From contig NW_019028995.1 of the NCBI RefSeq assembly GCF_002105155.1, forward strand, positions 372,001 through 436,000: DNA of 64,000 nucleotides, given 5' to 3'. A model generated the notes under the pieces. The model was not told the origin of the DNA. It did no database searches and was given only the letters and a program-made list of their open reading frames with translations. Below, in pieces: positions 1,566-56,477 of this stretch. A program made the translations under genes and the position numbers. The stretch comes from Lobosporangium transversale. Lineage: Eukaryota. The number at the start of each line of letters is the position of its first letter. Positions within the stretch are counted from its first letter, which is position 1.

Positions 1566-1598
<33 letters not shown>

Positions 1599-9315: not shown

Positions 9316-9446
9316 TATAAAAACTCAAGCAAATCCCTGACCTGGCACATGTTTGCTTCACTTTATGTGCCTTAACCAGGACTCGAACCCGACCCCTGGG
9401 CTAGACAGGAGGGTGCCCTGACGAGTATACTACTCAGCCATTGGGC
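9316..9446 (-). promoter_or_regulatory. tRNA-derived Pol III promoter head (A box, B box, T5 tract)
   Basis: Minus strand GCCCAA-TGGCTGAGTAG (A box) ... GGTTCGAGTCC (B box) ... TTAAGGCA, then about 45 nt and TTTTT; the same module occurs at 31508-31632 and in part at 39716-39798. Confidence 0.8.
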
Positions 9447-9451
9447 CTGAT

Positions 9452-9526
9452 GTCCTTTGACCCCGTTGCCCTGGTCCATACATGACGTCCTTTGACCCCG
9501 TTGCCCTGGTCCATACATGACGTCCT
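9452..9526 (+). repeat. 35-bp direct tandem duplication
   Basis: gtcctttgaccccgttgccctggtccatacatgac at 9452 and 9487, with a partial third copy at 9522. Confidence 0.9.
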
Positions 9527-9628
9527 CAATCTCACAGAAGCTTTTGGCTACGCCAAGGGTTCACCCATGATCTTTTTTTATTAATCAGCTGACCACTCCA
9601 ATGACGTCCTTGGTTATTGCTGGTTATT

Positions 9629-9701
9629 GCCCTTATGGCTTAGTGGTTATAGCGTCCCACTCGTAATGGGAAGGTCCTCGGTTCAACTCCGAGTTGGGGC
9701 A
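9629..9701 (+). tRNA. tRNA-Thr(CGT)
   Basis: GCCCTTA...TTGGGGC-A acceptor stem, D loop TGGCTTAGTGG, anticodon arm TCCCA-CT CGT AA-TGGGA, T arm CTCGG-TTCAACT-CCGAG, TTTT at 9721. Confidence 0.93.
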
Positions 9702-9724
9702 ACTTAGATCTAGAAATACCTTTT

Positions 9725-10193
9725 GGATTAATCTATTTGACAGCCTAGTTGCTAAATATTATTTGGCAGCCTAGTTGCTAAATATTATTTGGCAGCCCAT
9801 TGCCAAATATAATCAACTTTCAAGACTCTCTTTGGCAGCCCAGTTGCCAAATAACATTCATTATTTACTTGGCAGCCTACCCAGGGCTATTTGGCCTCTA
9901 ACTATTTATTTATTTTTATTTTTATTTTTTTTTTTTCAAGTAGGTCGCTCATACAGTTTTGGAGGTGCCATTTGGAGATCAATGCCTATGAGAGGTTTTC
10001 GCTCGGAGCAAACGCGTCTCACCTACTACCTAGACGTCTTCAATAAACCATTCCCTAACCGTGTACATTGAAGGCTGTTTTGTGAAGATGTCATCGCCGC
10101 TGCCCTTAGTACCTCCGGCGGCATTAGCTGTGCAAGGCAATGTATCCACAGAACGCTGCTTGTTTTACCACTGATGTTATGACCCTGTTTATC

Positions 10194-10226
<33 letters not shown>

Positions 10227-10373
10227 TGTATTTGGCAGCCCAGCTGCCACCCAAGAGTGCGAAGTTAAGTGGCAGCCCCCAGAAGTAGGCTGCCAAATAG
10301 AGGCAAAAATTACTATATTTGGTATGGGCTGCCAAATAATGTTTGGCAACTGGGCTGCCAAATAGATTAATCC
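9725..10373. mobile_element. Non-autonomous Mutator (MULE)-like MITE
   Basis: Terminal inverted repeats GGATTAATCTATTTG(A/G)CAGCC... of about 47 bp or more; 9-bp TSD ATACCTTTT at 9716-9724 and 10374-10382; internal TTTGGCAGCC repeats. Confidence 0.88.
9937..10222 (+). mobile_element. Poly(A)-tailed 3' fragment of a third LINE-like element inside the MITE
   Basis: Ends ATGACCCTGTTTATC-A(n), similar to the family A/B tails; the short frame FWRCHLEINAYERF resembles the ORF2 end SYRQQVELAIMERL. Confidence 0.55.
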
Positions 10374-10572
10374 ATACCTTTTTGTCACCAAGAAGTTGGC
10401 GCTCTTTCTATTTCATTTCCGAAGCGTTAACCATTGTCTTGTGGCGTTTCTTTTACACTACCCACATATTCTTTGGAAAAGAGATTTGTACGGAGTCTTT
10501 ATTTCAGTCTTTAATACCACTACCAGGAAGCCTTCCACGGCACAAGCTCGATACCCAAGCATCAAATATTGA

Positions 10573-10920
10573 CCAGAATATTTATCTTATCAAAGTCGTA
10601 CGTAGCCCAGAATATTTATCTTATCAAAGTCGTACGTAGCCCAGAATATTTATCTTATCAAAGTCGTACGTAGCCCAGAATATTTATCTTATCAAAGTCG
10701 TACGTAGCCCAGAATATTTATCTTATCAAAGTCGTACGTAGCCCAGAATATTTATCTTATCAAAGTCGTACGTAGCCCAGAATATTTATCTTATCAAAGT
10801 CGTACGTAGCCCAGAATATTTATCTTATCAAAGTCGTACGTAGCCCAGAATATTTATCTTATCAAAGTCGTACGTAGCCCAGAATATTTATCTTATCAAA
10901 GTCGTACGTAGCCCAGAATA
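10573..10920. repeat. Perfect 34-bp minisatellite, about 10.2 copies
   Basis: Unit CCAGAATATTTATCTTATCAAAGTCGTACGTAGC repeated head-to-tail with no spacers. Confidence 0.97.
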
Positions 10921-11668
10921 GATGTTGATATTCTTTATGCGATTCTGAGACTAAATAAAGGATTACAAACGATTTATCTATAATTGGAATATACTATGCC
11001 GCTTTACTTTGCACTTTTGTTGGTCGTATTCTTATAGGTTGTGGATGGTTCCCTGATGCTTTCTTTCATTTAGCGCTTGCATACATCTCTAGTGTTCCGT
11101 ACGCTATTAAGCATATAACGATGAGTTCAGTAATTAGGGACCTCTAATGTGTAGTTTGTTTCGGTATATATATAAACGATCATACTCATTGCTACGATGC
11201 ATAGCGCGCCGTACTACTACTCTCTTTCTTTTCTCTTTCTTCTATGTCCTTATCACTGTCCTTCTTTATTAAGAGCTCAAATGCCCTCGGTACTAAATTT
11301 TGTTTACCAAATTCACCAAAATACAATGGGTAGACCTCAGTTTATTTTGTGGGCAGTCTATCCTTTCACCCGTTTGTAACCCGAGAGAACTTATATTCTG
11401 ATAGTTGGTAACAGTTCGCACTCAAAGCCGATCGTGCCACAATTACCTATATCCCTCTATCTAAATAGCTAAAATACTTTAATAGCATAGCCGTGACTTA
11501 TAGTGATGGAAAAGAGGTATAAATACTCTTTTCTGTTGCGTTGATAAAGATCCTTATTTTTGTCTCATTACATTCCAGGCTTACTATCATCGTCTTTAGC
11601 ACGCAGTGTCGCATACTCAGCAGCACATGTAGATGCTCATTGCGTCTAGGGACTAGCTTCATATTGTA

Positions 11669-11943
11669 CAATCACCTGAAAGAAAGTTTGGTCAAAAAAA
11701 TAAAATTTTGAAATGGTTATGAAGAGAAGCACTGTCTTCAATCCTATTTCTTGCCGTTTTCCCTCAGCATGTACTGCCCACAAACCTCAGTGATTATCCA
11801 CATTGGCCTCATTAATAAAAGCCTAAATTTCCATCTTGATTGGTGAAGTATTTTTGTATGTCACAAATGAGCTGTTTGTCAGAGATTTAAAATAAAAAAA
11901 TAATAAATAACCCACTTTGACCAGACTTTATTTCGGGTGACTG
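11669..11943. mobile_element. Tc1/mariner-type MITE
   Basis: Left end CAATCACCTGAAAGAAAGTTTGGTCAAA versus the reverse complement of the right end CAGTCACCCGAAATAAAGTCTGGTCAAA (4 mismatches in 28); TA on both flanks. Confidence 0.75.
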
Positions 11944-12646
11944 TAGAGCGGAATAGAGCGTGAAAAATATTTTGTAGATAGATGGTAAGCAGTAGAAAAG
12001 TAAGTGAGAATAAGATATGGGTCCACACACCACACCCATGGGGTATTTATTCATTTTCTGCTAGAGGGACTTATACCAGGTAACTACGTATCTATCTGTA
12101 GGATGACATAGGTTCGTTCTAAAAATTTCATATCAAAGATTTATCGCGTCTTTGTGTGGCGCGTTATTGCCACTAATTTCTACTGTTAATCTTTTTAGCG
12201 CATTAGTATTTTTCTTAATTTTTTTCTAGCTAGGCCATAATATTGCATACTATGAAATATGCAACAGAGCGCGATAAGTATCGCAGCTCCCACGGCGCTG
12301 CAACTTCCAACAGTAAAATAATTCCAGACTCCCCTCTACTCTAGATTCACCTTCGCTTATTTCCTTCGAAATAAAAAGCTAGAATCATGTAGGATACACG
12401 TTGCCGCTTGTAGATGAAATAAAGATCCCGTACAAATAACTTCATCCTATTCTTTTTAGAAATGCCTTGTTAAAATTCTTTATTATGTCGTTATCGCTAC
12501 ATAATGGACTGCATAAATTTATAAAATTACAGTAATAAAAACACAGTAGAATCATGGTATTATAGTCTTCGATTTCAGTGCGCCTTAGAAGTCTCTGTGC
12601 AACAACAGCAGAAAAAAAAAAAGGTTTAGAAATGAATAACTACTTG

Positions 12647-14416
12647 TCAAGTGTAGAAATCTGTCAGATGTCTGAACAGTGTAGTGTTATTACCTGGAAG
12701 AGGCTCATCTTTTTTTGGCCAAACCTTGTTCCTGTGGCGTAACATTTCCTCCCCCAAAAGAAAACCATATCGATTAAAAAACTCTTCAGGTAACTCCCAA
12801 CTGTGAGGATCGAGTGGGTGGCCATGGCACCTTGCTCCATTGATTAAAACTCTGCATAGATCTTCAACATCAAAACTTTTTTGATGCAAAATCATCTGCG
12901 CCCTTAATCTCGGACATGGAATCAAATCAATTCTGCTGTCATGTGGGAGAGCATAGACCTTGGGATCAATATTGGGATCTACTACAGGTGGTGCCGAAGC
13001 AAGTACCTGGATCTCAAGTTGCAGCCGCTTGCTCGGGATAACATTCTGCTTCAAGCCGTCATCCAGCCCCAGTGTGGGTGTAGCCATGTCAAATTCATTG
13101 CCGTCCTCATCCAAGATCGAGGTTGGATCAGTAGGAGAGCCAGCATCTATTGCAGTAGTGCAGTAAGTGATTGTGGCTTGAGCGGGCGCGATGACGGGAT
13201 CTCTAAGTGGAAGTGGAGGACGACGATGGTGATTGAAATGATCATGAAGTTGTTCCAAAAGAGGAACATCATTCACGATTTCCTGAGGGGTTGCCAAATC
13301 AGTACGGATAATCGATTGAAGAGTGCCAGGAGGGAAAAGGGATGACTGAAGTTCATCAAAAACGGACGCATGTTTTGTATACTCTGTTGCTCTCTTTGCT
13401 AGGTATGTTCCTGCCTCTGTGAAAAATAGTCGTGATGCTACAGGCGGCTCGCAGGTTGTAATAGATCTAACGGACTTCCCGTCGTCAGGTTCTAGCATAC
13501 AAACCAATGACGGTTCGTTACAAAGGATACCATCATTGATGGGGAATAATGTAGCGTTGTCTGGATCCATTGCTTGATCCACAGGTTCATTCATTAAGGT
13601 TGAGGAGACAGTTCTTGTTGATACAGGAGATGAAGAGTAGGAAGAGATATTTTCGAAGGCAGAGTTGGTAGGGGACGTAGTTGGAAGAGTAGCAGAAATG
13701 GTGGATTTGGGACTCGATGGCAAAGAAGTTGGTATAATAGCAGTAGTTGAAGTAGAAGGAGGGGAAACAGAATCAGGAGATACTGGCGCTGTAACCGGAG
13801 CGCTGACAACCTTTTGATGCAATAGCTGCTGCGATTCCTCTGCTAAGACTTGGAGAGGGAGATGGCCATTAGGAAGGAATATCGATGGTGTTGTGGGCAT
13901 TGGTGTCCGTTGCTCCTGGCTCGACGATATTGTGTCTGAAAGCTGTTTCCGCGCATGTCTGTCGTAATGACGACGATAGAACTCAGCCTTGACTTCCTGC
14001 AATATCGCCATATTTCCACCTTTATGTAATGTCGTTTCAAACGAAAAGACAACATGGCGCAGATAGTAGTTCTCGCTTTGAAGCGATTCGACAGTAGTTT
14101 TAAACTGTTGAGTGTCCTGTTGAATCCGCATATTCATTTGAGAGTTCTTTTCTTGAAGGTCTTTAATCATTGCTTCCATTTCCTGAAGATGCCTCTCTTT
14201 ACGGTCACGAAACGCACGCTGAGCGGCTCTATTTTGCTCCTTCCGCACCGCAGGCGATGCAGGATTAGGCTTGCGGCCAGGTTTTCTTCTTACTTTTGCT
14301 GATGGTTCAGATGATGAGGTGTGATTACTACTGGCGGAGTCCGAATATCGAGTCCCAAGTGTTTTGCGACTGTCTGCATCCTCGTCTATTGTAGCATTAT
14401 GTTTAGGGGACTTCAA
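12647..14416 (-). CDS. bZIP transcription factor (AP-1/Yap-type basic region, C-terminal DUF3425-like domain); true start uncertain
   Basis: RKEQNRAAQRAFRDRKE followed by a zipper; C-terminal IDLIPCPRLR...DPHSWELPEEFFNRYGFLL. The ORF opens on TTG, so an upstream exon is possible. Confidence 0.85.
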   Translation of the reverse strand: MKSPKHNATIDEDADSRKTLGTRYSDSASSNHTSSSEPSAKVRRKPGRKPNPASPAVRKEQNRAAQRAFRDRKERHLQEMEAMIKDLQEKNSQMNMRIQQDTQQFKTTVESLQSENYYLRHVVFSFETTLHKGGNMAILQEVKAEFYRRHYDRHARKQLSDTISSSQEQRTPMPTTPSIFLPNGHLPLQVLAEESQQLLHQKVVSAPVTAPVSPDSVSPPSTSTTAIIPTSLPSSPKSTISATLPTTSPTNSAFENISSYSSSPVSTRTVSSTLMNEPVDQAMDPDNATLFPINDGILCNEPSLVCMLEPDDGKSVRSITTCEPPVASRLFFTEAGTYLAKRATEYTKHASVFDELQSSLFPPGTLQSIIRTDLATPQEIVNDVPLLEQLHDHFNHHRRPPLPLRDPVIAPAQATITYCTTAIDAGSPTDPTSILDEDGNEFDMATPTLGLDDGLKQNVIPSKRLQLEIQVLASAPPVVDPNIDPKVYALPHDSRIDLIPCPRLRAQMILHQKSFDVEDLCRVLINGARCHGHPLDPHSWELPEEFFNRYGFLLGEEMLRHRNKVWPKKDEPLPGNNTTLFRHLTDFYT

Positions 14417-16208
14417 TTGTCAATGATTGTAGACTGCAAAATGAAAGGAAAAAATGTTCGCTGTAGTATATATTTCACCTGAAGAATTGACTGTACTAGA
14501 GTACAGCCTTTTGTCCTTGCGATCAAATTGCTGTTGAATGATGCGGAGTTGTGGTAGTGGCCGCATTGTCGAGGTCATTTCTGAGACAAAACAATCGAAC
14601 CGAGCACAAATAAGTAGAAAGTAATATAGTGAGCAATGGAATGGAGCAAATGGAGAGTTGTCCCTCGTCCTGATGCTGGCTCCTTCGGACTAGAACTGGA
14701 GCGTTGACAGACAATAATAATAAATTGAATAATGAAATTCTTATATTAATAGAGAAGACTGATTATCGAATTTTGACCTGATTAACTAAATAAGAGCCAT
14801 GGAAGGAAGTAATTACCATCATGAAATCAATCTGCCGAAAAACAAAAAAAGAGCGTGCGCAACTCAATGTGTCAGTCACGCTGGGCGCATTTCTGGAGGA
14901 TAGCTTTCTTCGCTTGCAATTAAGGGATATTCTCCATGTGGAGTAAAGGTTAGAGAGCCTGTTGTCAATTATCCAATGATATTCGACAACGACAGATTCT
15001 GTCCTTTTTAAAGTATTTGTATACATGAATACATATTTGTTCACAATAAATATACAAATATATATATCTATGTAAAATATAGGTGTTAGAACCCTGTTTT
15101 GCGTATTGGAAATCCATTTACGAGCAAATCAATATGTGCGACATGTATACTTGTTGTTTGCAGCTGGCGGAAAAAACACCACGCGGAAGATGGGGGTACA
15201 GAGGAAGATTCGAATGGCTCTCATTTGTCATTCTTTACGTATATATATAATAATATTAAAAGTGGATAGTAGCCAGCAGGGACCTATGCACAAATGCGTC
15301 CATTACTTTTCAACACAACCACTTCTGGGCAACTATGCTTTGAAATGTGGCTTTTTTGGAATTTCAGACCCAGGCTGGAGAGTCTTGCCAAGTAGGTAAT
15401 GTGAATAATATAGAATATGCTATATGCATCGATGCTCCTCTCTCTTTACTTCTCTTCTCCATACTCCATTCCATCACAAGAAGAAAGTTCCAATAAGCTT
15501 TTTATACCACGCGTTTTTGTCCCTGAACATGTTCTCCTGTAATCCAGCGATCCAAAACTATGCTGAATACATGCATTTGTGTACATGTTATATTTTCGAG
15601 TTAAACAGTTTTATTTTTATAAAATTTCTTACAAAGACAAAAAATAAAATAGTAGATTATAAGTCCATGAGGCTGCTCCAGTAGCCAATCACTTGGCTCA
15701 TCGAAAGAAGTGGAGACTGTTTGTCCTCTTTCCCGTCAAGGTCAAGAAGATGGAGGACAGTTCTGGTCACTCGACCTCTCCTTTGGCTGGCCTGAGTTAG
15801 TACTAAAAAACTCTTTTCCCCAGCCTTCACGCCTCTTTTTTAAATATTTTCTTATGAGGCACATTTTCTTTCTCTTCATCCATCACATCATCCATCATCT
15901 CCTTCCTTTCTTCTTTCTTTCCTTCAGATCAGTTCATTTATTTAAATACTCATTATTTTCCTTCGGTCTCTGTCTAATCCATTTCTTTTGTGCCATCTCC
16001 ACATCACTTTCCCTTCTCTTCCGTACACAAACTTTCCCCTTTCTCCACAACAGACAAACACGTTTTTACACAAAACATTCATAATATAGTCCCACACATT
16101 CAAATACACCAAAATTTTCCCTCTTTCTCTCTCACGCACCCTTTTCTCTATTCCTTTTCTCTCTTGACACCTGAATCAGTTCTCCGCATCCAGCCATAAC
16201 GTGCAACC

Positions 16209-17592
16209 ATGAACATGTTTAATACCGATTCAGGGTTCAGACCGCCATCCCCTTTGAACTTTGCTCCGCCCAGTCATGGCCTCTTTGGCGAGTCTCTTCC
16301 TTATGATGGTAAGTAGCTTATGCTAATGCTCCATAAATGGGTACATTTTCGTGATGTAAACTGTACTAACTTACTTTTTCCCTTCATGCCCACTTCTAGA
16401 TTTTAAACTGTCAAATCAGGATTTTCTCAACCTGCCCGCTTCTCCATCTACATTGACAAGCGACCCATCCATGTCGCTCTTCAACCCTTCTGAACAGCGC
16501 TACTTTTCAGAGTTCCTCGATACCTTGGTCGTCGACCAGGACTTCACTTTTGACCCGAGCTCAATACCTAATCTTCCCAATCTGCCTCTCTTCACCTCCG
16601 AAACCATGCCCAACGGGTTCAATCTTGAAAACAGCAGCAACAGCAGCTCCTCCTTTCTCACCGGAGGCTCTATCTCTTCCTCTTCATCGTCATCATCATC
16701 TCTTGGCTCAACCCAGAGTATGATGAATGCCAGCACTATGGATTTCGAGTTGGTCTCGCCTTCATCCCAATCTAGTTTTAGTGGTTCGCATTCTTTTCCT
16801 TCTCATTTTAGCTATAATGGTGCTGTCGATGGCGTTGAATCCCCAGCTTCACCCGCGTCTCCTTCCTCTTCATCTGCCTATACCAACCCTAGTAAGCGAA
16901 AGCCAACCAAGAGCGCAGAGGCAAGACGGACAGCCTCTATCAACCAAGAATCCAGCAAAATTTCGACACCAATCCAGCAACTTTCAAAACTCTCACTTAA
17001 TAGCAACAGCAATCCTAGTATAATCAATACCAACAATCCAACCAATGGATCTTCCAATCCGAAGAAGAATAAACGGGATGAGGACGAACATCCCGCATCA
17101 TCTACCTCGCCCACCTTGGTCTCTTCACCTTCACGAGCACGACGAGAGTTGGTGGAAAACAGGCGAGAGAGAAACACATCAGTCTCGGATGGATCAGTCT
17201 CAGATACTGTTACGACAATCACAGCTCCGGCTACGGCAAAGCGTAAGCCTTATAAGGAGTTGTTGACAGAGGAGGAGAAACGTGCCAACCATATTGCCTC
17301 CGAGCAGAAGCGTCGAAATACAATTCGTAATGGATTCAAAGATATGACCGACATCATTCCAGATCTCAAGGATGTCAACAGCTCCAAATCAACGATTTTA
17401 TTCAAGGCTGTCGATTTCATCAAGCATTTGGAGCGCCAGAATCGTATGCTGCAAGAGAAGGCCAGCAGACTTGAGATGAGACTTGTGAATCAAAGAAATG
17501 AGACTAATGGTGGAAGTGTCATTGGCTCTGGACTGGATGATCAGCGGTTGCAGGACATCCCTCACATTTATCCGGTCCCATGTAGCCGGTAA
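16209..17592 (+). CDS. bHLH-zipper transcription factor (Ino4/MLX-like), 2 exons
   Basis: Exon 16209-16308, GT-AG intron 16309-16399, in-frame exon 2; KRANHIASEQKRRNTIR...SKSTILFKAVDFIKHL. Confidence 0.88.
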
Positions 17593-17788
17593 AGCTTACA
17601 CGTAGCAAACCAGTAACAGTGAACTTTTCTCTCTCACTCCTCCTTCACCTTTACTTTTTTTTTTAGTGGCTCTATTTTCAGATAGATCACTTGTAGCATT
17701 ATCGCCATGTTTCATTGTAATATAGCCCATATTTGTCAATCAATATCTATTTGATTTCTTTTTCAATCCAATATCCTTTCTTTTTTTT

Positions 17789-17825
<37 letters not shown>

Positions 17826-17944
17826 GAATAAATACCATGGTTTATTGCTATTGTTGTCATTTCTTTTTAGTATAGTACACCGTTTTATATTTACGCTACT
17901 CTATTACGTATTTTTTTTTTTTTTTTGCTAAAAGGTAGTTCAAA

Positions 17945-20141
17945 TCATATAATGGATGAAGACGCCTCGCTACGAGTAGGGATGAAAATATTCAAGGGCA
18001 CCTTGGAGTCACTGGCGTTGTTACTCTCTCTCAGATCTAGCACCCTTTTCGAGGACATTTGAGACGGCACTTGTTTCATGGCCAATGATTTAACCTGGGG
18101 CTGAGATAACTCCTTGGGGCTGATCTTGGCGACATCGGCATAGGTCTTGTCAAGGTCTATGGGATATTCATCCAATAGCTTATTCACGAAGATGTCAATG
18201 TTTCCCAGCACCTCTTCATCCATCTCCGGAAAGTTTTCCAGGTGGTTATCATCTCTGTACAGCGACAGATACGAACTTGTGCCATATCCTTCCATCGAGA
18301 CTAGAGATAGGTCTCCACCAAAATATCGAGCGATCAATCGTGATAGAGGCAGACCATGCCCAGATCGACTCAGAGGAAGGTTCAAGTAGCCTTTGGTCTC
18401 ATCGGCCAATCCGCTCGCGAGTGCGTTAGAATTTGGATCTGTAAGCAACATACCTACTCCCTGTTCATTCCCAAGTCGTTCATTTTCAGCCTTTGGTGTG
18501 ACTGAAGTGGCAAAGTGCATATAGCTCCAGATCTTGTCTAATTGTGACAAGGCTATCCCGCCGCCTTGATCTGTGATCTTGATTGTCACATCCTCACTAC
18601 CGTCAACTAGTGCCAGTGTGATGGGCGGTAGTTTTGAGCTAGTACCAAGACTTGATAGCTTAGACATTCCAAGCGAAATTGGGTTCCCATCCTTGCTCAA
18701 ATGTGTCTCACAAGTTGCTCTCATGGCATTCTTGAGAAGCTCAAAGATGGTTCGATGGAGAAAATCATCCACATAAGTCATGGTGATGTCTGGGTTAAAC
18801 GTCTGGATCAAGACGGATGGCGCCGGTTGTCCATAGTGTACGGAACAAACACGTTGAGCATCCTTGATAGCACGCTGTGAGGTCGAGAGCAGATTCACAC
18901 GCTGCGCTAAGTTTAACTCGTGATCGCGGAGCGCAAGTTGCTCACCTTCGTAAATGAAAAGGAGCCAGTTAATTTACAGTCATGATGTCACATAGGAACT
19001 TGGAATTTTGAATCAGACCCTACAAAAAATAAACAATAAACATATCCTTACCAATTAAAAGTTGAGTACTAAGGTTGATGGAATAAAATCTATCGAAATA
19101 GGCCTGGATATCCCTGTCCATTTGTGGATCAATGAGCAACCTTTTATTATCAGTAGTTGATTGCAGACTAGCTTTAGTCGAGGTAGCGTCATCTCGATAA
19201 TCTGTGAACTGAGCTTGGAGAGACTTCGTAAACTCTTTGAAACCCTGACTGAGAGCCAACATCTTGATTTTGTGTCGATGGCCTAGGTCTCGGAGCAACA
19301 TTGTAAACTCTTTCTCTAGCTGAGGGCTTGATGGCTTCGGCATCTGGACCAAAAGGCTAATAATATCATTTGTGGGTATGTCACCGATGAATTCATATAG
19401 TTCATCAGCAAGTAAAACAGGAGGTGTAAAAGTATGTTAGAGCGGTTTTAGTAAAGCTTAAAGGACTGAACGTGGAAAACTGGATCAGTTACTCCTAATA
19501 GTAATAAAAGATGGTCATTCGGCTGGTATTCCTTGTCCTACTGCTCTGTTGTATGAGATCATCTTTTTTTTCTTCCACTCTGCAGTATCTTTCCCTTCCC
19601 GATCCAATTCTTTTTCTAAAAATTAAGGCAAACAAGTGCATAAAATACATTGAAGGAACAAACCTAATGTCTTCCAAGTAGGACCTGGCGATGTTCTGAA
19701 AGGTCGGCATCTCTGACATATTAGTCCCCAGCAGTTTTGAGTTCAACATGCTGAGGGCATGCGACAGACGGATAGGGAGTTCTCGATGTAAGAACACTGC
19801 AGGGATGACCAACGCGTCTTGATTATTTGACGCGAGGACATGTCTAATGAACAGAACAAGTCATATGAGTATTTGCTTCAAGACAAAAAGTCAGAACAGT
19901 GAGATTCTTTCTTTGTCTTTTTACTTCCTCTCATTACCGTCCAAGTGTGTATATTTGTTTGAGCTTATATCAAACAAAAAAAAAAAAAAAAAAAAAAAAA
20001 GATTGAACAAAATAGATTCGTTAGAAACTAAATGCGTAGGGATATTGTTATACTCAAGGAAGAAGCCCTTACAGACAATCGAGTCGCTTTGAAGCGACAC
20101 AGTTTAATGATAAGAGCAGCCTGAGTTTTATTCATAGGCAT
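17945..20141 (-). CDS. Mitochondrial alpha-ketoacid dehydrogenase kinase (PDK/BCKDK family), multi-exon
   Basis: FLHRELPIRLSH, FELLKNAMRAT (N box), IKITDQGGGI (G1), GLPLSRLIARYFGGDLSLVSMEGYGT; first exon boundaries approximate. Confidence 0.85.
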
Positions 20142-20697
20142 TAAGTTTTTTTTTTTTTTTTTGGATTGTTATAGAAGAGAGAAAGAGAGAGTGTGTGTAA
20201 ATGTAAGTCTGTGTTGTGTCCGTCTAAAGTAGGGCTAAGGAGTGATAAACGCGAATACCATTCGGTGGCGAAGGGTTGGAGGACGAATAAGAGAGAGAGG
20301 AAAAGATAATCATGAACATTGCACGAGAGACAAAGGATTGAGCCAAGCTAGGTTGGAAGAAAAAGAAAAAGGCGATAAAGAGAAGATGCGAAATTTCGGC
20401 CGAAGTAACGAAGCGCCAAATGTAAGCAAGAGAAGATTGAAGTGACTGAGACAGCGGAAGCGAAGGCTACGGAAGAAAGAAAGAAAAATGAATAAAATGT
20501 TTCCAGCCGAATAGAAGGAACCGGAACCAGTGAGACATCTGTGGGGTATCAGGCAACTCTTTACTCTTTTTCAACCAACAGTTAATCAGATTAAGCGTTT
20601 ATAATGATTATACGCGAGTGCGCAGATTTATATATTACAAAAGCGAAGGGGGAAAGTATATACTATTAAAGGAATAATATGGAGACGGTGATTGATT

Positions 20698-21645: not shown

Positions 21646-22280
21646 CTTTTATACCGAAATCCTTGGTTTAATATTTGCTCTCAAGATGACAGACATAGAT
21701 GAATGTCAAGGGGTGTTTAATATCTTGATGGATTTGACAGGTGGTGTGGGCTTCTGTTAAAAGTCGCAAAAATGCTCTCATTCTTGGTGTGATAATTTGC
21801 TTTTATTGAATTGGAGTGAGTATATACAACATATGAAAAAAAAAAATGACAGTTGAATGTTTGACATACCGAAGAGGTACTCGTTTTCCTGGGTCCTCAA
21901 TTTTCCTGATGTTCCATTTTGACAAACATCAGCCTGTTTATTTTTGTGGACGCACTCTTTTTGACAGGTGAAACCGGCATGCATCCATCTCTCAGTTGTT
22001 CAACTGTCATTATTTTGACATTTTCTTCTTCTTCCTTTATTCCCCCCTTTCTTTTTTCCTTCACTGCGTTATTCCTGTCTCTTTATTTACATATATTATA
22101 TAATACTCTTTCTATTCCCCCTAGATTTCCCTGTCTTTTTCTATTTTCTTCTTTAATAGTTGTAGTTATTCCTGTTGTTCTCATTGCTTATTCATCTGTA
22201 CATCTCTTTCGTGGCGTTTTTGACATTCAAGATCATTCCACTTTTTTTTTTTTTTTTTTTTTTTTTTTGGCGGTATAAAA
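21646..22280. promoter_or_regulatory. Bidirectional promoter with clustered TTTGACA motifs
   Basis: TATAAAA on the minus strand near 21647-21653 and on the plus strand near 22274; TTTGACA at 21733, 21860, 21918, 21960, 22014 and 22219; TGTCAA at 21704; TTTGCTC at 21674. Confidence 0.65.
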
Positions 22281-22357
22281 CCAAGTCCTTTTCGAATTCT
22301 CTTTGAACCCAAATTCTTGTTCATTTAATTCACTCCCTTTAAAAAGAATAGTAAGGA

Positions 22358-23575: not shown

Positions 23576-25560
23576 AAGCACATCTTACTTTCTTCGTAAG
23601 CTCCACTATAATCCGAATGTAAATAAATGTCATATTCAATATCAAAATAAAAATAAAGTGCATGTCTTACCTTTCTATATTATGACCTCTGAGTCGGATA
23701 AAACCACCTATTACGCTTTGATTCATACTGTCGGACAAATCAAATACATGTATGCATGCGTCTTATTTTCCAATATGAAGAACGTGAGGGTAGTCCAGAC
23801 TGCCGTACATTTACCACTATCCGTTACCTTGGCGTAGTTCTGGATTGCATGCTAATAGGACATTTACAATAATATACAGTGCATATCAAAATTAGCAAAA
23901 ATTTTACCTTCTTTATTTCCTCCGCTTTTACTGCATGTTCAGAGCGAACTGGATTGGAATAAAGGACTAAACGAACAAAGCTTCATTAAAAAATAAATAA
24001 CGTTCGTAACCGGCCACCACAGTCCCCTGACATGAATTCCATTGAACACATGTGTTGAACTCAAGAGAAGGCTTGGAAAGTATTTTTTCTTTTTTTTTAC
24101 AGCCTTTGACAACAATGACAAAACTGTAAAATATGAATGTATTCGCCAAAATTAACGTAGATGACTCCTTTCTTCTAGCACTAGATACTAAAATGGATCA
24201 ATCATTGATGAAATAAGACACGTGTATAATGAATATATTTGTGTATATCCATCGTATCCATAGTGAACTGACTTATTTTATTTCTTTACAAGGCCATCTC
24301 GCATTTTGTCTTTACTGTTTGAGAAGATATCACGAAGATATCACACGGCCATTGATTAAAACACCCTCTAGATTTTATTAGGGATATATGCAATTGAATA
24401 GTGTCGTTCATCCTATCACGTATGTATATATATATCATGGCATGTTTCCTTCTATCTGTTGTAAGGATTTCCCTGTTTAGCTCTGATAATTCTATTAACT
24501 TTTTAGATAGATGGCCCATTAAACCAAGGGAGATCTGATTAAGCCAGAGAGCAATCTATAAAGAATGTTAAAGTACAATGTCAAGGAAGTCAAATACCTA
24601 TCCCGAGTCAGTAAGCATGTTCGTGTACATGCACATAAAAATATTATACATGTACTTGTACTTGTATGGCGGAAGAATCTTCCAGACAACACAATAGGTT
24701 AATTTTTGACTTACTTTTGACAAACTTTAAAAGAATATTCATGTACCTGTCAAAACGCTGACTCGGGACCGACCGCCCATCAGTACCTTAACCCATACAT
24801 GTACAGGCTTTTTGTGATGTTTTTCTTTTTTCTACTTTCCTTTTGATGAAATGACATCCTTAATGGTAAACCCCGCATCGATTAAAATTTCTTTTTACTG
24901 TATGGTCAGCTGTGTGAAGGAGATCTATTGGTGTTATTGTTCAAGTTATTGATCTGTCTCTTATGGACGTATCGATATGAATTCACTAACGACAGTTATA
25001 AGAGTTGCTCGAACAACAAAATAAAGTATAGGGCCAATTTTGGCAGACAGGGGTAGAGGAAGGAGGAGGACTTTCAGGTACTACCATGGCCGTGTCAATA
25101 GTTTATATTTGTCAAGTTGATAAAGAGAGTTGACAGACTGAGTAAATGTATTATTTAAGGTTTGACAAAGAGACAAATCCTTGTCTCCTTTGAGGTACAC
25201 AATTTTGACGTTGACACAAACAAACAACGTGCCTTCTATTTGTTTTCCGTTGCCCTATACATTCAAAAACAAATACATGTAGCACTTTAGAAACTCTTGT
25301 TGTAGAGCTTGAGCCAATCCAGAAGCAACAAGGCCACTAATATATTTTTCCCAAGGTTATCAGCACTAGATAAGGAATGAAGATGCAAGAATTAGTTACT
25401 ATCGCAAAAAGCATCATCGTCAATAGATTCAGTATAAAATGGTCCCTCTCCCGCTTTCTCTTTCTTTACTGTCGTGCCACATTTTGCTACCACTTCCTCA
25501 GTCATATATCCGTCTTCTATATCTCTTTACTGTAATACATCACATCAGTTTTTTTCAACC

Positions 25561-26205
25561 ATGAAGTTCGTTGCTGTCGCCTCTGCTGCCATCTCAACTA
25601 TCCTCTTCGCCACCCCGTTGGCCGAAGCCCATGTTACTGCCAACCCCTCAGCTGCTGTCTCAGGGTCCTACTTTCAGACTAGTTTTCGTGTCCCTCATGG
25701 TTGTGATGGTAATGCTACAAACCTGGTCATTGTCGAAATCCCCAAGGGTGTTTCCTCAGTTAAGCCCCGCCCTCTCTATCCTTGGAATACTACCATTTCC
25801 ATGGTACCTCTCGATACCCCCATCACCACACCTACGGGCACCATCAATACCACCGTTGGTTCTATTACCTGGTCCAATGGTCTAATCCAAGATAACATGT
25901 ACGAAGATTTCGGATTGCAGTTCAAGTTACCAACTCAGGAAGGCCCTCTCTACTGGAAGGTCTACCAGCATTGCGTCAATAACGAATGGAACAACTGGAC
26001 CAGCGTCCCTGACGCCAACGGAAAGACTGATGGTTTCCCTGCAGCCGTTATTACTCTTTCCAATTCCACAACTACCACTGGCCCTGGAGGTGCTTCCCCT
26101 TCCGCTAGCAGCAAGCCTAGTGCTGCTGTCGCCGCCTTCCAGAGCTTGAACTTCGGCCGCGTCGCTCTTATCAGCTCTGGTGCCTTCTTGGTCGCTCTTA
26201 TTTAA
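25561..26205 (+). CDS. YcnI/DUF1775-family copper-binding protein, secreted with a GPI-like tail
   Basis: Signal peptide ending AEA, mature N-terminus HVT, FRVPHGCDG, IPKGV..VKP...W, ITWSNG, WKVYQHC, NW; Ser/Thr linker and hydrophobic C-terminus; TATAAAA near 25433. Confidence 0.85.
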   Translation: MKFVAVASAAISTILFATPLAEAHVTANPSAAVSGSYFQTSFRVPHGCDGNATNLVIVEIPKGVSSVKPRPLYPWNTTISMVPLDTPITTPTGTINTTVGSITWSNGLIQDNMYEDFGLQFKLPTQEGPLYWKVYQHCVNNEWNNWTSVPDANGKTDGFPAAVITLSNSTTTTGPGGASPSASSKPSAAVAAFQSLNFGRVALISSGAFLVALI

Positions 26206-26559
26206 GAAAAATAAAATAAAAAAAGCCTTACCTATATACCATGCGAAGATAAACAGGCAGCGAGTGGAGAAGAAAGGAAGAGGACGAGAAGGAGAACGCA
26301 TTATACATCCTATCATAGACTATATGGCGCTGCTTCATATACAACGCTTCTATTATCCATAATGCTCACACCTTGAACGTAATACAGTTAATAATAACAA
26401 TGGTAATAATACAAACCTGGTTGCCATTCAAAGTTTGGTACTCATCTGAATGCGATAATATTTATTTTCTCCTTGCGTACCACAATTTATTTATCACATA
26501 TGACACAGAACTGCAGGTCAAGACGGTGAATAGTATAGAAGCCAGAGGAAAAAAATCAA

Positions 26560-26647
26560 AATGAATGCTGCAATAATGATCTTGTATTTACGGAGCAGAC
26601 GAATTGAACGCTGTTCCAATCCGATTTCGTCTCGAAGCCGATTCAGC

Positions 26648-26692
<45 letters not shown>

Positions 26693-29600
26693 GCAGTTAG
26701 TGTCCCTGCATAGAGCAGATAAAGCGAAGCTTCGGAAAAAAAAGAGAGACCTACATTAAAGCGTGCAGCGCCCATGATCTTCGTGCAGAGCACAATTCTC
26801 TCGTTAACATCCTTGAGCTTCGCGTCTACAGTTTCGGCTAACGTCTTGCCAGTGGAAGGTGATGGCCTAAGGGCTAACTGAATCTCTTGATTATCGATCG
26901 CTCGTAGCATAGCGGTCATCAATTTCTAATACACATATTGTACAGTAAAAATGATTATTCATTCATAGTCACGGCATTCAATTATATAAGACTTGCAAAT
27001 GTACTCACTTTAGCACCATCATCCAATTTATTCAACTTATCGAGACACATATCAATCTGCTGTGATACGTTCTGGATATTTGCATAGCTTGCTTGAAGTT
27101 TGCCTTCTTGTTGTGCCAGACGGAGATCAATCATATCAATCAACAAATCCATATCCCTAGTTTTATCGCGAAATAAAGGAGTAAATAAATTTGTGATAAA
27201 AATAAAGTATTGATAAGGGACACTCTACATGTTCCGTCGCATACTCAGAGATGTTTTCGGACTGGTGTTTCTTGGAATCCATAAATGCATCAAAGCCTAT
27301 CCCTCCATGTGGCTTGGATGAATCAATAGTATGGTCGCTCTCCACGTCTAAAGCGTCAAAAAATAGCAGCAATGTAAAAAGGGAATAAGATTAGCAACGC
27401 AACTACATAAATATTTTTCAGCCGCCATTGATTCCTTGAATGCTATTAACCATACCTCCGTGGTCCATGACACTTATGGCAATCCAGTTTATAAATTCGC
27501 ACTTCAGCTTAACGGAAGGGGACTCGAGGCACATAATGTTAGTCCTATCACCATTGAGCATAGAAAATATCGCTGTGGCATCTATGAAATTACAAAAAAA
27601 AGAAAGAAATTATATGTGGTGTCAACAGCTAAGGAATTTTCATGGACACCCATCGCTTGTCGTGTTTTATATTATTAAAAAATACTTACGATTATCATTC
27701 ATAATGGACACATCAACTGCGGTATCGAATTTTTCGTATTCGAGCCCACGGGCAATTTCACCAAGATAGAGCTCCAGGCCAAATGTTGCTTGTCGAAATT
27801 CCTCGCGATATTTTCGCTCCATCTCTTTCCATTTGGCAATTTCGGCTGTCTGTAGCTGTAGCTGTTCCAGTCGCTGCTGCTCCTTAACGCTTGTCCACGA
27901 CCATTTCCTGCTGAGGAGCTGTGCAGAGTACGGTATTGTCTTGGATAAATTATTGTTGTTGTTATTACTTATCTGTCGGACTGAAAATGGTGGCTCATGG
28001 TGTTCTGTAGGATCGCTTCTAGACCGATCAGGTGTTCCTGCAATGCCTCTGAGAAACAAATTACTGCTGCTTATGGGGCTGTACCGCTGATCCAAATACC
28101 CAAGTGCCCGTCCAGAAGATATCCCAACAGGGGAAGCTATGGGACTTTCACTTAGGGTTCCTGAGCTTGTCATGCGCGTCTGATCCCAAGCTAATGCAGA
28201 TTTGACGATCTTTTCTCCTAGATTTTGCTTGTCTCGTTCACTGCCGCTCAGTCGAACAGACTCTTTTGTTGGCTTAGAGAGGGCAGTGCTTAAAATTCCG
28301 GTTTCTAGTTGTTCAGACGTATCATCTTGACCTCCATCATTCGGCCAGAAAGAGGCAATCCGGCTCTGTTCTTGTTCTTCTCTTAATGTTTTTGCTTTTT
28401 TCTCTAATGCACGGTAGGTCACATATGCCTCCCGAAAATATTGTGCACATGCAGGCTCCAATTTCAAGGATAGCTTTTTATATTCGACATTTTTGCCCAG
28501 AACTCGAAATATATAGTATCCTTGGAACTTTGAGTTTTCATAAGATCTGAAAAGAAAAGATTTTGTCCCTATGATGTCCAGGCCATTCGCTCTCGACTGC
28601 TGAGGCATTGATTGAGGCTCGTAATTAGTGAGCGTACCAATAGGTGTACTGTAGATAGAAAATGGTATGACATGTGGTGCCAAAGGGCCTTGTTGTATTT
28701 GAGTATATGGATGATGTTGCTGTTGGTACGTTTGCGATTGGAAACGAGTTTTGGACGCGGATAGCGTTGCAAAGGCATTGACAAAGCTAGTTGGTAATGG
28801 TTCTAATTCCACCAAGAGCAAGTTTGGATCTGGGTTCGCCTGACGTGCTTCCTTTAGTGCAGGCGAAATGAGTGCTTCCAGGCACCAGGTCACCGGTATC
28901 TGATGGCGAACTTCTTCTCCGACAGACCGACTACGATGGCGGTGGTGGAAGCTATGGAGAAACCCATGATGGTGACGGTGACGGCTCGACCGGGATGTTG
29001 ATGAGTCTTCGTCATCTGTAGCAGCTGTCGCGAAAGGAGTAAACATTCCGGTGGCAACAGAGTGAGTTTTTTTTGTGAAGCGCCTCTTACGCCGCCCTGA
29101 ACCCTTCAGCTTGAAGCCTTTGGAAGTCGAGGGTTGATCATCTCCCGAAAGGAAGTCTCCAAATAAGGGGAATGTACTACGAGTTTGTATTGGTTTCATG
29201 ACACCGTTTTGAGTCCCATGCAGATCTCGAGCAGATGGTGCGGTTGAGAGGGGCGCAGTTGAATGCTGATTTGAGAAGCCCACGCTCTTTAATAATAAAC
29301 GTACTGCTTTATTATTTTCGTGCCCTTGCTCTGATCCAGACAAGCTACCGCCTTTACCTTGCGTTACTGGGCCTTGCCCATTGTTGAAGTGAGTTATAAT
29401 GCTGCTGGGGCCGTTTCGTGGTGGGAGTTGTGGTGGGAGACCAGAGTCGGTATACTTTAGTTTCGAGCGTGTAGACAATGAGGCTTTTTTGCTTTCTGGT
29501 GCTGATGGAAATCTATGTGTGATGCCTCCAACATTAGATATGAGATCTGATTCAGGTTCTAGAGGGAAATTCATCAATCATGCTTTCCTTAGCTTATGTT

Positions 29601-30675
29601 TAGGAAGATCTAATTGTTTAAACATAAAACTCCCACTCATACTTGCATATTTCCACAAACCCTTCTCTCAAAACCACATCCATAGATCCATACACCTTTG
29701 TGATTCTTACCAAATGTAGCCTCCGAGTCACTTTCTCCACTTGTGATGAAGGCATTTACTCCACCATTATCACGCGAACTCGATCCTTGTTTTCTTCGAA
29801 GCTTTCTAAACCTGTTTTTGATCCCTTTCTTAGGTGTTTTATTTCCTACTATTTGACCTTTTCGCGTGTTTGTCGTAAACAGGGGTGGGCTGTTATTGAT
29901 ATCTGCAGGTAACTTAGCGAACGGCACTGATGAAATAGACAGGTCGGCTAGAGGTTCCCGCAAAAGATATAGAGCGTGGTGGCGGCATCATGCTCACATT
30001 TGAAAAAGAATGATAAAGAGGTCGCATAAGCTCCGGAGACTGTGATCTCTTCATTTGACTGCCATTATTATTGCCAGAGAGAGCAGGAGGCACAGTAGGA
30101 CTTTCAGATATTGTTCCTGATGCAAAGTTATGTCTCGCGATAGCATCTACAGAGGAAGGTGTAGTAATACCACCTGATGGCGGTGTTGATTGTGCGTGAG
30201 GGCGAATCGTACTTGGTAAGAATGAGGCGCTGCAATAAGGGTGGAATGCACCAGGCGGGACCGAGATGGGCGAACTTAGTAAGCCTCCTGATACCGTATT
30301 CCGCAAGGTTATAGGATCAGTTTTAATCAAAGTTGCAGAGAAAGACCGAGAGAGCTGCCTTTTAGCATGGGGCCGTACTGTATCCGATATTGATGGTTCA
30401 ATGGTTTCTGTAGGTGTAGGCTGGAGCGTAGCTTTAGCTTTAGCTGTTCCAGAATTCTGCTGGACACAACATATACCATCTGGTTGACTGTTGATTGTAT
30501 CCGTTGGATTAGGTAAGTTATTTTTATTAGAAGAAGAAGAAATAGAAGTAGGAGAACGGCCAGCAAGGGAAGTTGTGCAAGAAGACTGTGGTCCAGCTAA
30601 AGGATCGGACATGGTGGTAGTATCAGGCGAAGTGGGGACCCGTGGAGGCCAACCACCTAAGTAGCCATTATGCAT
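26560..30675 (-). pseudogene. Multi-exon gene of unknown function with an apparent frameshift and in-frame stop
   Basis: Chain of minus-strand ORFs joined by GT-AG introns; frame change near the A4 run at 29962-29965; TGA at 29580-29578 lies in frame after splicing 29710-29610. 3' end approximate. Confidence 0.55.
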
Positions 30676-31092
30676 CGCAGTGGAAAGTAGACGAGGATAG
30701 GAGGCAGTACTTGTAATGGAAGATGATGCACAAAGTTACAAGCATGCAACGTAATGGTTGTCTGCACTGGTCTAAGAGCTAAGGTGAGAAATGAGAGACG
30801 AAAGGAAGTGAATGCCAAAAAAAAAAATAGAAATATATATTTAATGTTCTACTTACTGCATATGAGAGAGCTCAATTCAAATGATGTTTCATTATCAAGT
30901 AATGTTATTCGTGCCCTGACAAACAACAGGAACCATACGAGTGACTGCAGATGTAGCAGATATGCCCTATCTATCGATTTGACTTTAGTTGCAATTCAAG
31001 AAAAGAACCATGTTACTCCGTGTCCAGGGTGTCCAGGAATACTTTTTGCTCTCAAAAATAGAGAAAAAAATATCATACCGGATACAGGTATT

Positions 31093-31165
31093 AGCCCAAC
31101 GCGGGGATCGAACCCGCAACCTTCAGATTAGAAGTCTGATGCTCTACCGATTGAGCTAGCCGGGC
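31093..31165 (-). tRNA. tRNA with anticodon TCT (Arg) on a tRNA-Lys-like body
   Basis: GCCCGGCTAGCTCAATCGGTAGAGCA-TCAGA-CT TCT AA-TCTGA-AGGTT-GCGGG-TTCGATC-CCCGC-GTTGGGC-T folds into a full cloverleaf. Confidence 0.92.
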
Positions 31166-31404
31166 AAGGTGTCCTGCGCATAGTTTTGGATCTCCTTAAA
31201 ATCTAATTACCTTGTGTTATCATTATATCCAGTAGTATTGTGTTTGGATATAGTGGCTTCCATACATTAGGTAGTATACTCGTCAGGGCACCAAAACTCT
31301 TCTCCGTACACCATCGGATACGCTACATTTACACATTCCCTCTCTATACACACCCCTTCCACACCCCCTGTTAGCGCACAAGAGTGCCAACGACATCACT
31401 CATC

Positions 31405-33850
31405 ATGGAACCTGCATTAGGAAAAAATCAGCAACATGATCCACCCAATTTGGACAGAAATGTCCCTCATTCGAAAAGAGCTCGCATTCCAAATAGCGGA
31501 ATCGGATTGGCTGAGTAGTATACTCGTCAGGGCACCCCCCTGTCTAGCCCAGGGGCCGGGTTCGAGTCCTGGTTAAGGCACATAAAGTGAAGCAAACATG
31601 TGCCAGGTCAGGGATTTGCTTGAGTTTTTATACTTTCTCTCCGAGACAGCCTAGTGTTCTCCGCTAAGGCTAAGATCGTGGGTGCACTACCCTAAGTCGC
31701 CTGGCTGGCCACATGTCTTAGGTATATATTCCACCCCCCAGCCGAACCAGCGGTACATCTGGCAGCACATCCCCCCATCCACCCACTTGACTAGGACAGC
31801 GATGATCACAAAGTTTGACGGAGTCCAAAATAGAAATTTCAGACCAATTCCGCAAGATTTGGGTCCACATGCCAGTGGATTTGATCTAATAGAAAAAATT
31901 AAAAAAGTCGTCCTTAGCTAGAGTCGGCACGCCAGCCTCCGCAGCTTTTCACGGGCGCAACAGGCCACATCGGAAGGATGGACTTCGAGTACCGATCACG
32001 GTGTACATTGGTAGAGAAAAACATGGATACGAATTGGCTCTTCACAGCCATCCCGTGCGAACTTTGAGAGTTTCGCTTGTTTCATAGTTGAGGGCGATAT
32101 CATTACTTTAGAGCGAGATTATGAAATAAAATTCCTCACCTCTGTGGGTTCTTGTTAACAGGAAAAAAAAAAAAATCCAAATAGCGGAATCGGATCTCAA
32201 AGACAGCCCAACAACCAAGAAGTCGGTCCCGCAAGCGGCATAGAGGCGAGCGGGAGCCGCGTTGACGAGGGAACGGGCTCTAAGAGCCGTCCCTCGTATA
32301 ACCGCAGCCTGGGTGCAAATGGCTTGCGTGCAGCTACACAAGAACAGGACGCAATGGACGAAGACGATGACGCAATGGCCACTGTGGGAGTCACAGAATG
32401 GCAGGAAGTGAGACGCACCAAGGATAGGCTGAAGGCGGCCGGCGTCTTCCTCGAGGACCTTTATGGAACAACGGTTGCCGAAAAAAAGAAAGACCTGGAA
32501 ACAGTCTTGTTGGATGCTGCCATCTATTGCACAGAAGGACCACACAAGGTCAAAGTCAATGGATATACTGCTTTCCGTGTTGCTGTTGAGGATCAACCAT
32601 CCCTGACAGCGCTCCTGGAAATGACTGCTACACACAAAGATGAAGACGGAAATGAACACGAAGTCCCATTGTTTTTTGAAATGAATACCGACACCCGTGA
32701 ACGTGAACTGGAACGCACAGTGGAGGTTTATGGTATTGCTCCTAGGACTCCGGAATTCCTTATCAAGTCAGCAATGCTGCAGTTCGGTACTATTGAAAAG
32801 ATTGCAACCCGCCCATGCTCCAAGGGAGTCAAGATCACCGCAGCAGTAGTTTATAACAATGTTGAGGACGTCACAAAATTCAAATTGGCCAACCGGGAGC
32901 ACGTCTTCATTGGAAAAGAACTCGCGCGCATCCGCAAAATCGGCAATGAACGAGTCGAGTGGACATTGACACACGTCGCAAAAATCTCAGGTCTCCCTTT
33001 TGGAACGACAGACAAGGACTTGGAGCCTCTCCTTGGAGAAAAGCAAGCGAATTTCGTCAAAGTGCCACGCTATTTTTCAAAAGACGGGAAGAAATGGCAA
33101 TATCAACGAGAAGCATTCGTGTATTTCCCCTCTGCAGAAGCAATGGCGGAAACTATGACTAAACCAGTCAAAATCGGGGGCATTGAGACTTTCTGGGGTG
33201 ATAAGGACGACAAACGATGCCGACAATGCCACAAACCAGGACACATCATGAGGGAATGCGAGGTATTCATTGCACTCCAGGAGACAAAGCAGCACATCAA
33301 AGCTGTCAAGGAATACCAAAAGGGAGGAGCACTGAAAGTTGTACCACAACTCTCATACGCCAAAGCCGCCACGGGAAAGAGTGGAAGTGTTACTCAAAGC
33401 AACCAACAGAAGGCACAGGAAGAAAAAACCAATATCCAAAGTTCTGGTCAAACAAACGTCATAGGAAAGAACAGCAACACTGGTGCAGTCGATAAGAAAA
33501 TCCAGCAACTGGTAGATACAGTGGAACGCCTACAGGAAGAGCAACAACAACTACGTGCTCAAAACAGTCTACTAATCCAAATGTTAATAGGAATGATGAG
33601 CCAACATCTTGGAATGGACTTCGCAGCCGAGCACCTGAAGGCAGCAGGACTGAGTGGAGAGTTCCACAGGAACGTGCCCAAAAACAAAGGTAAGTCAGCT
33701 GCTTTTCCAGGCATGCCTCCTACTAACGAGTCCCTAGCAGGGATTATGGCTCTCATAGCAAACGGAGCAGGTAGTAAGGAAAAAAGTAGAAAAGAAGAGA
33801 AATCAACCTCAAGTGGATTGCCGCCAAAACCACTAGTCCATAATGAGTAA
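31405..33850 (+). pseudogene. LINE ORF1 of copy 2, split by a SINE insertion
   Basis: MEPALGKNQ start at 31405; the frame resumes after 32195 and matches copy 1 ORF1. Confidence 0.9.
31508..32175 (+). mobile_element. tRNA-headed SINE / non-autonomous LINE partner (about 670 bp)
   Basis: A and B boxes at the 5' end, LINE-like 3' UTR, poly(A), perfect 20-bp TSD TCCAAATAGCGGAATCGGAT at 31488-31507 and 32176-32195. Confidence 0.93.

Positions 33851-52483: not shown

Positions 52484-56477
<3,994 letters not shown>

Follow-up and report, generated by a model that had tools for sequence, protein, structure and literature searches.

In the table of a 2018 review on retrotransposons next to tRNA genes, the elements without long terminal repeats (non-LTR) come only from dictyostelid amoebae, and the fungal entries are all LTR elements (PMC5911963). 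The dictyostelid TRE5 elements are listed there with a window 40-54 bp from the mature tRNA, on its upstream side (PMC5911963 Table 1), the protein encoded by the first open reading frame (ORF1) of TRE5-A binds TFIIIB subunits, and mutation of the B box abolishes targeting (PMC5911963, PMC5391098). Here, a 64-kb stretch of Lobosporangium transversale (NW_019028995.1, positions 372,001 to 436,000; hereafter the window, numbered from its first base) was analyzed, in which a family of long interspersed nuclear elements (LINEs) and a partner short interspersed nuclear element (SINE) lie directly upstream of tRNA genes. We consider it probable that this Mortierellaceae LINE/SINE lineage is tRNA-targeted. 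No description of a tRNA-targeted fungal LINE, or of this family, was found in the literature searched (which excluded subscription journals, Repbase and supplements, so that an earlier description is possible).

The window contains a tRNA-Thr(CGT) gene at 9629-9701 on the plus strand and a tRNA-Arg(TCT) gene at 31093-31165 on the minus strand, both called by ARAGORN and by Rfam (RF00005, 64.6 and 70.2 bits, respectively). No further tRNA genes were found in the 64 kb at default ARAGORN and Rfam thresholds; when its threshold was lowered and introns were allowed, ARAGORN made 14 calls across the window, of which most had implausible introns and none was credible as a further tRNA. The family was present directly upstream of both genes, with the element 5' end facing the tRNA 5' end (i.e., head-to-head). 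The gap between tRNA position +1 and the family 5' end measured 182 bases at tRNA-Thr (9446 versus 9629) and 105 bases at tRNA-Arg (31271 versus 31165), in agreement with an earlier note on this sequence that had placed the family directly upstream at about 180 and 105 bp. The element that the same note had recognized at tRNA-Thr does belong to the family and does begin at 9446, but it is a SINE head, whereas the conserved 5' end of the LINE lies at 9316, about 310 bp away. Self-comparison of the window identified two near-identical 7.7-kb LINE1 copies on opposite strands (1 mismatch over 7755 aligned bases), each of which starts just upstream of a different tRNA gene and runs away from that gene. 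The 5' end belonging to the LINE itself was placed at 9316 and 31293 because homology of the 5' untranslated region (UTR) with four relatives begins at that motif; the possibility that the LINE itself owns a tRNA-like 5' head was rejected on this ground.

Outside the two tRNA-flanking clusters, DNA profiles of the LINE 5' UTR, the 3' tail and the SINE detected no family copy in the 64 kb at E <0.1, and ORF profile searches of the window added only the LINE3 piece at 43172 described below. Weak matches to the ORF2 profile at 52121-52516 (E 0.007) and 50748-51044 (E 0.03) lay where the profile is charged and of low complexity, and were disregarded. In a scan for paired A and B boxes, such pairs were confined to the two tRNA genes and the SINE heads. 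For a 350-bp window that was picked after the data had been seen, and ignoring the number of windows screened by the scan, the post hoc probability of this placement by chance is 0.008-0.013 for one insertion event and 6e-5 to 1.6e-4 for two founder events.

Upstream of tRNA-Arg stands a stack of five insertions, all co-oriented on the plus strand: two SINEs (C and D), a full-length LINE1, a LINE2 and an old, decayed piece of LINE3. Nearest to the tRNA gene, at 105 bp, is the 5' end of the SINE C head (31271-31291, lacking its first 13 nt), of which 31274-31291 is the left copy of an 18-bp target-site duplication (TSD) belonging to LINE1 copy A. Copy A, a full-length native LINE (31293-39715, right TSD 39716-39733), lies inside the SINE C head and is itself interrupted 215 bp from its start by SINE D (31508-32175), which is flanked by a 20-bp TSD (31488-31507 and 32176-32195). 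The remainder of the SINE C head (39716-39798) contains, within 39717-39753, a 17-nt direct duplication with a 3-nt spacer, a possible scar of abortive target-primed insertion. It is followed, still within SINE C, by the 5'-truncated LINE2 (39799-42646, RNase H to C-terminus), a second subfamily with about 50% amino acid identity to LINE1, whose insertion went along with the deletion of 76 bp of target. SINE C then continues with its body and tail (42647-43171), which are 96.7% identical to SINE D and are abutted by LINE3 (43172-43459), a co-oriented and decayed fragment of ORF2 from a third subfamily that is more distant (36% identity to relative P0030, E 3e-15, with in-frame stops; hidden Markov model match E 4e-15).

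Distances from tRNA-Arg at the time of insertion were reconstructed by removing later insertions, giving 105 bp for SINE C, 108-126 bp for copy A across its 18-bp TSD, 171-191 bp at the 5' junction and 247-267 bp at the 3' junction of LINE2, and 322-342 bp for SINE D across its 20-bp TSD; LINE3 would start at about 105 bp, provided that no target DNA was lost. The earlier note had counted four co-oriented insertions at about 100-340 bp, a range that these values (105-342 bp) reproduce, with the count corrected to five. From nesting and decay, the simplest order of insertion is LINE3, SINE C, LINE2, copy A and SINE D, in which nesting does not fix the order of LINE2 and copy A. Nested copies were all co-oriented with the SINE heads and none stood head-to-head with a SINE head. 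Contigs of three studies (runs X1, X2 and X4) matched the junction of tRNA-Arg, flank and LINE at 31139-31323 without a difference, although one of these studies may be the source of the window itself and 27 of the matched letters fall in the tRNA. The junction between SINE D and copy A was not among the contig pieces listed. Overall, the tRNA-Arg gene has received repeated co-oriented insertions by three LINE subfamilies and a SINE, of different ages.

At tRNA-Thr, a tRNA-like SINE head on the minus strand (9316-9446; A box at 9440, B box at 9389), 182 bp from the tRNA gene, is joined directly to the 5' end of the full-length LINE1 copy 1 (1568-9316, minus strand, poly(A) at 1568-1597). This head is 98.4% identical to that of SINE D over 125 bp, and high-depth contigs stop at 9446, its edge facing the tRNA. 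No TSD was found at copy 1 (the longest word common to both flanks is 4-5 nt) and no SINE body was found beyond its poly(A). This arrangement could stem from template switching that produced a chimera, from a large deletion of target DNA, from recombination among copies or from mis-assembly, between which the contigs listed do not discriminate; under any of these, tRNA-Thr is faced by a family 5' end 182 bp away. A contig crossing the junction between head and flank has 25 letters on the head side and was not counted as bridging under the rule of at least 31 letters. Between the SINE head and tRNA-Thr, TRF reported a 35-bp tandem duplication of 2.3 copies (9448-9526), which is covered by a contig at about twice single-copy depth (run X1) and is possibly another scar of abortive target-primed insertion.

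One scan of metagenomes with an ORF1 alignment yielded four loci from 207 pattern matches, of which only L004 offers a free flank of sufficient length, with no element preceding the LINE. In this locus, a tRNA-Cys(GCA) gene is found on the opposite strand 153 bp before the LINE 5' motif, again head-to-head, and no SINE was present in the spacer between them. The gene was detected by Rfam (54.5 bits, E 2e-9), is cut by the contig end and was missed by default ARAGORN. The ORF1 product of L004 is 38% identical to that of the window and 94% identical to a Mortierella alpina protein. Assuming 100-400 tRNA genes and 20 Mb of intergenic DNA, such a placement is expected by chance with a probability of 0.0009-0.0035 per locus, or at most about 0.014 over the four loci examined. 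The head-to-head upstream arrangement was thus seen at all three loci with a tRNA gene (Thr, Arg and L004), which gives the fixed-orientation targeting proposed in the earlier note partial support, at both window loci and at one locus of another genus. In runs X1, X2 and X4, from the window organism itself, an extra contig joins a tRNA-like 5' piece of apparently about 26 nt to a SINE head in the same geometry (31165 joined to 31508, shorter side 21), which is counted as a hint only. Two further features were observed in L001, another of the four loci. Its SINE (25-911) has a different tRNA-like head and body stretches in common with the window SINE, as might result from head exchange on a conserved SINE core, and the spacer between the SINE poly(A) and the LINE start (912-930) is an inverted copy of 19 nt of that LINE's 3' end, suggesting a template jump at the 5' junction.

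LINE1 encodes an ORF1 protein with three RNA-recognition motifs (RRMs) and a CCHC knuckle, and an ORF2 protein with the layout APE-RT-RNase H-CCHC (RT, reverse transcriptase). In copy 1, ORF1 occupies the stop-to-stop frame 7447-9234 and ORF2 extends over 2430-7460, both on the minus strand; the ORF2 domains were assigned by Pfam on the identical copy-A protein (RNase_H E 1.6e-11), except for the CCHC motif close to its end, which was read from the translation. A structure model of ORF1 generated from a 14-sequence alignment (mean pLDDT 60.7) showed a coiled coil and the CCHC knuckle in addition to three RRM-like domains; in structure, it matched multi-RRM proteins best. In both LINE1 copies, ORF2 ends at 1676 aa just past the CCHC motif (38865-39500 and 1799-2432), compared with 1887 aa in the close relative P0021, and homology to LINE2 goes on past the stop in another frame; judged from these sequences, both window copies may lack a working C-terminus. 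At window position 9004, four runs read A at full depth where the window has G, reflecting either a LINE-copy variant or a consensus error. In run X7, a contig over the LINE 5' stretch 31366-31464 differs from the window by G>A changes alone, as in a bisulfite library, and all 18 G positions are converted, including those in CpG, so that this single contig gives no sign of 5-methylcytosine on that strand.

Homologues of ORF1 (n=17) were all close relatives, the best being L. transversale proteins (94-95%), and all ten with a named organism came from Mortierellaceae. The 28 RT matches reached further, with named relatives from Entomortierella (66%) to Geosiphon (26-33%) and an oomycete (26%), and no dictyostelid RT was named among them. 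In a quick RT tree, in which 41 of 43 rows were kept (P0034 and P0036 were dropped as short) and no TRE, NLTR or L1 reference was included, window LINE1 and L004 fell within one 10-row clade with a support of 97, and the sister clade (P0027-P0030 and P0043) contained the closest match of LINE3. Matches in the PDB leave the wider clade unfixed (human L1 ORF2p E 3e-19, R2 E 6e-17; RNase H domain alone E 0.014 or worse), and those in the ESM Atlas were generic RT clusters only. Scans of viral and genome contig collections with ORF1 and ORF2, and of viral contigs with the 5' UTR pattern, found nothing.

The partner has the features of a SINE, namely a tRNA-like head with A and B boxes, a LINE-like tail, poly(A), a 20-bp TSD and many copies. 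The boxes were detected by the box scan, the head being called neither by Rfam nor by default ARAGORN, and it did not fold better than shuffled sequences (z -1.6, 0.2 and -1.2). Its tail is 77-79% alike to the LINE 3' UTR over 87-88 nt, and on the basis of this tail and the A and B boxes the SINE likely borrows the LINE's enzymes, and hence its target. Contig depth, which does not equal copy number, points to roughly 4 LINE1 and 27-39 SINE copies. None of the RNA runs contained the stretch searched.

Established at these loci are the anatomy of the family, its geometry at three tRNA genes in two genera and the absence of a shared target motif. The mechanism that would most likely account for them is tethering of the LINE ribonucleoprotein to the RNA polymerase III (Pol III) complex on a tRNA gene, with nicking of the upstream DNA in a fixed orientation and target-primed insertion guided by that complex. 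The cue would be the protein-bound Pol III machinery, with TFIIIB as the candidate by analogy with TRE5-A, and the pattern would be generated by insertion, not by later selection. That the window is broader and further out than in TRE5 points to a tether of greater length or to nicking on chromatin upstream, which would bring the family closer to Ty1. The SINE would acquire its target preference through the LINE-like tail, using the LINE's enzymes, and each new insertion near the tRNA would displace older copies outward, building up a stack. As a fuller account, we lean slightly towards an old, Mortierellaceae-wide LINE clade whose targeting evolved independently of Dictyostelium, with a fixed orientation and a broad window of 100-340 bp, and was passed on to a tRNA-derived SINE.

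The same arrangement could arise by passive accumulation, in which insertion is broad and copies persist mainly where gene-free DNA tolerates them, for instance beside tRNA genes or in dead elements; the stack would then be a safe-haven pile that grew after a single chance founder. The broad range of distances (105-342 bp), the position of three of the five tRNA-Arg insertions (LINE2, copy A and SINE D) inside earlier elements, the MITE-like element that also adjoins tRNA-Thr and marks the region as tolerant of insertions, and the few loci sampled are all compatible with this. Tolerance, however, predicts no single orientation, whereas all seven placed insertions face a tRNA gene (one at Thr, five at Arg and one in L004), nor does it predict that insertions keep to the upstream side and gather within the initial 340 bp of a stack 11 kb long, and about 27 kb of other non-ORF host DNA in the window are free of copies. 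Passive accumulation is accordingly regarded as unlikely. Self-targeting would require that the LINE inserts within or next to family 5' ends, whether SINE heads or the LINE 5' UTR, tRNA proximity being inherited from a few founders. Copy A and LINE2 do lie within a SINE head, SINE D lies within a LINE 5' region, the LINE at tRNA-Thr is joined to a SINE head and L001 is a SINE-LINE tandem. Against this, the L004 LINE stands 153 bp from its tRNA gene with a spacer devoid of SINE sequence, the insertion points in the heads differ and have no common motif, and founders at three of three tRNA loci would remain to be explained, which makes self-targeting a distinctly improbable account.

Least probable of all is that insertion is directed by poly(A) or another motif, as for Zorro3, or that assembly artefacts joined repeats to tRNA genes. 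Near-identical 7.7-kb copies are prone to mis-joining, the tRNA-Thr locus is without a TSD, and one low-depth contig (X5) has poly(A) immediately before the LINE start, which fits a stack as well as poly(A) targeting and in the latter sense also counts against tRNA targeting. Conversely, the 18-bp and 20-bp TSDs are both of mixed sequence, and 17 of the 21 poly(A) tracts of at least 13 nt in the window carry no family tail (family tails account for the other four). Different bases follow the poly(A) at every insertion, the 3' junctions having no common motif, and thus no target motif is evident. With regard to artefacts, the tRNA-Arg junction was recovered in contigs of three studies, and L004 stems from a different assembly and genus.

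Several further observations weigh against tRNA targeting of the lineage. Only three clean tRNA loci are available, the nested copies may not be independent events, and the spread of 105-342 bp is looser than that of any upstream non-LTR element in Table 1 of PMC5911963. Three of the four metagenome loci showed no tRNA gene: upstream of the LINE motif, L002 and L003 extend for just 59 and 124 nt, and in the L001 tandem about 25 nt beyond the SINE head contain none. The flanks of nearly all LINE1 and SINE copies estimated from depth were unseen, although the contigs listed are a partial set and the SINE-copy flanks missing from them are no evidence. The same applies to the head-LINE junction at tRNA-Thr, which was absent from this partial set; with the junction unlisted and neither TSD nor SINE body present, a flank mis-join is possible at that locus. 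Furthermore, one LINE1 junction contig (X2 and X4) has an unclassified 71-nt flank, and the extra contig joining a tRNA-like piece to a SINE head gives no distance; the length of its tRNA side comes from depth sums with a loose end at 31140, and the letters beyond do not continue a tRNA.

Other repeats were observed in the window. The MITE-like element (9724-10374; MITE, miniature inverted-repeat transposable element) begins 22 bp downstream of tRNA-Thr, has 48-bp terminal inverted repeats (92%) and internal 26-nt repeats, and its high contig depth suggests many copies. Inside it, the stretch 9905-10222 is bounded by a T-run on its left side and by 29 nt of poly(A) on its right, and its last few bases resemble the LINE tail; were it family, it would be a downstream, co-oriented exception. 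As a family member, 9937-10222 was not counted, its tail score being reached by 31 of 300 shuffles and its body score by 9-97 of 100. A perfect 34-bp tandem array of 10.2 copies follows at 10573-10920. Two other dispersed repeats had no match to LINE proteins, namely 43536-43692 with 57695-57847 (76%) and 11976-12053 with 44129-44206 (83%).

If tRNA targeting is correct, no tRNA-targeted LINE lineage would have been described from fungi before this one, and the SINE would be homing to the kind of gene from which it derived. It would also add a second geometry with which to ask how the distance of the nick is set by a tether. Since relatives occur in the industrial lipid fungus Mortierella alpina, a self-targeting tool for safe-harbour insertion in that species may be obtained from the element.

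Among described LINEs, a comparison can be made with Dewa of zebrafish, which is of the Tx1 type. It is likewise a target-specific element associated with tRNA genes, but is specific for the tRNA-Leu spacer, whereas the window family stands at three different tRNA genes with unrelated spacers (PMC3706591). Zorro3 of Candida albicans is, like the window family, a fungal LINE with a target preference (L1 superfamily), yet it targets poly(A) tracts, in contrast to the non-poly(A) TSDs observed here (PMC7175516). Ty1, Ty2 and Ty4 of Saccharomyces cerevisiae are fungal as well and use a broad window upstream of Pol III genes, but they are LTR elements that rely on integrase instead of target priming, and their window is about 1 kb (PMC5911963 Table 1). 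The resemblance to TRE5-A, TRE5-B and TRE5-C of Dictyostelium discoideum, as these are described in PMC5911963 and PMC5391098, is closer: they too are two-ORF APE-RT non-LTR elements with an oligo(A) tail, found upstream of several types of tRNA gene in opposite transcriptional orientation, at sites apparently set by position and not by sequence. They differ in their distance of 40-54 bp (PMC5911963), compared with 105-342 bp in the window and 153 bp in L004, and in an ORF2 of the layout APE-RT-zinc finger, to which the fungal LINE adds RNase H (PMC5911963, PMC5391098). The fungal host and the tRNA-derived SINE at the same sites set the window family further apart, and the contact with TFIIIB, shown for TRE5-A, would apply here by analogy (PMC5911963, PMC5391098).

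Closest in domain content are NLTR-A of Dictyostelium purpureum and NLTR-B of Polysphondylium pallidum, which are APE-RT-RNase H elements upstream of tRNA genes, with the RNase H downstream of RT as in the fungal LINE (PMC5006619). Their windows of 2-6 bp (A) and 39-64 bp (B) are narrower and nearer than 105-342 bp, and NLTR-B has three ORFs (PMC5006619). Kinship was compared here by domain layout. The window family is not filed under TRE5 or NLTR-A/B, since the distance windows of both and the ORF2 layout of TRE5 do not fit it. By analogy, it nevertheless appears to work like TRE5 and NLTR-B, and a fungal LINE with a tRNA habit would test whether LINEs acquired Pol III tethering more than once or whether the trait is an old one, belonging to an RNase H-bearing lineage common to it and NLTR-A/B.

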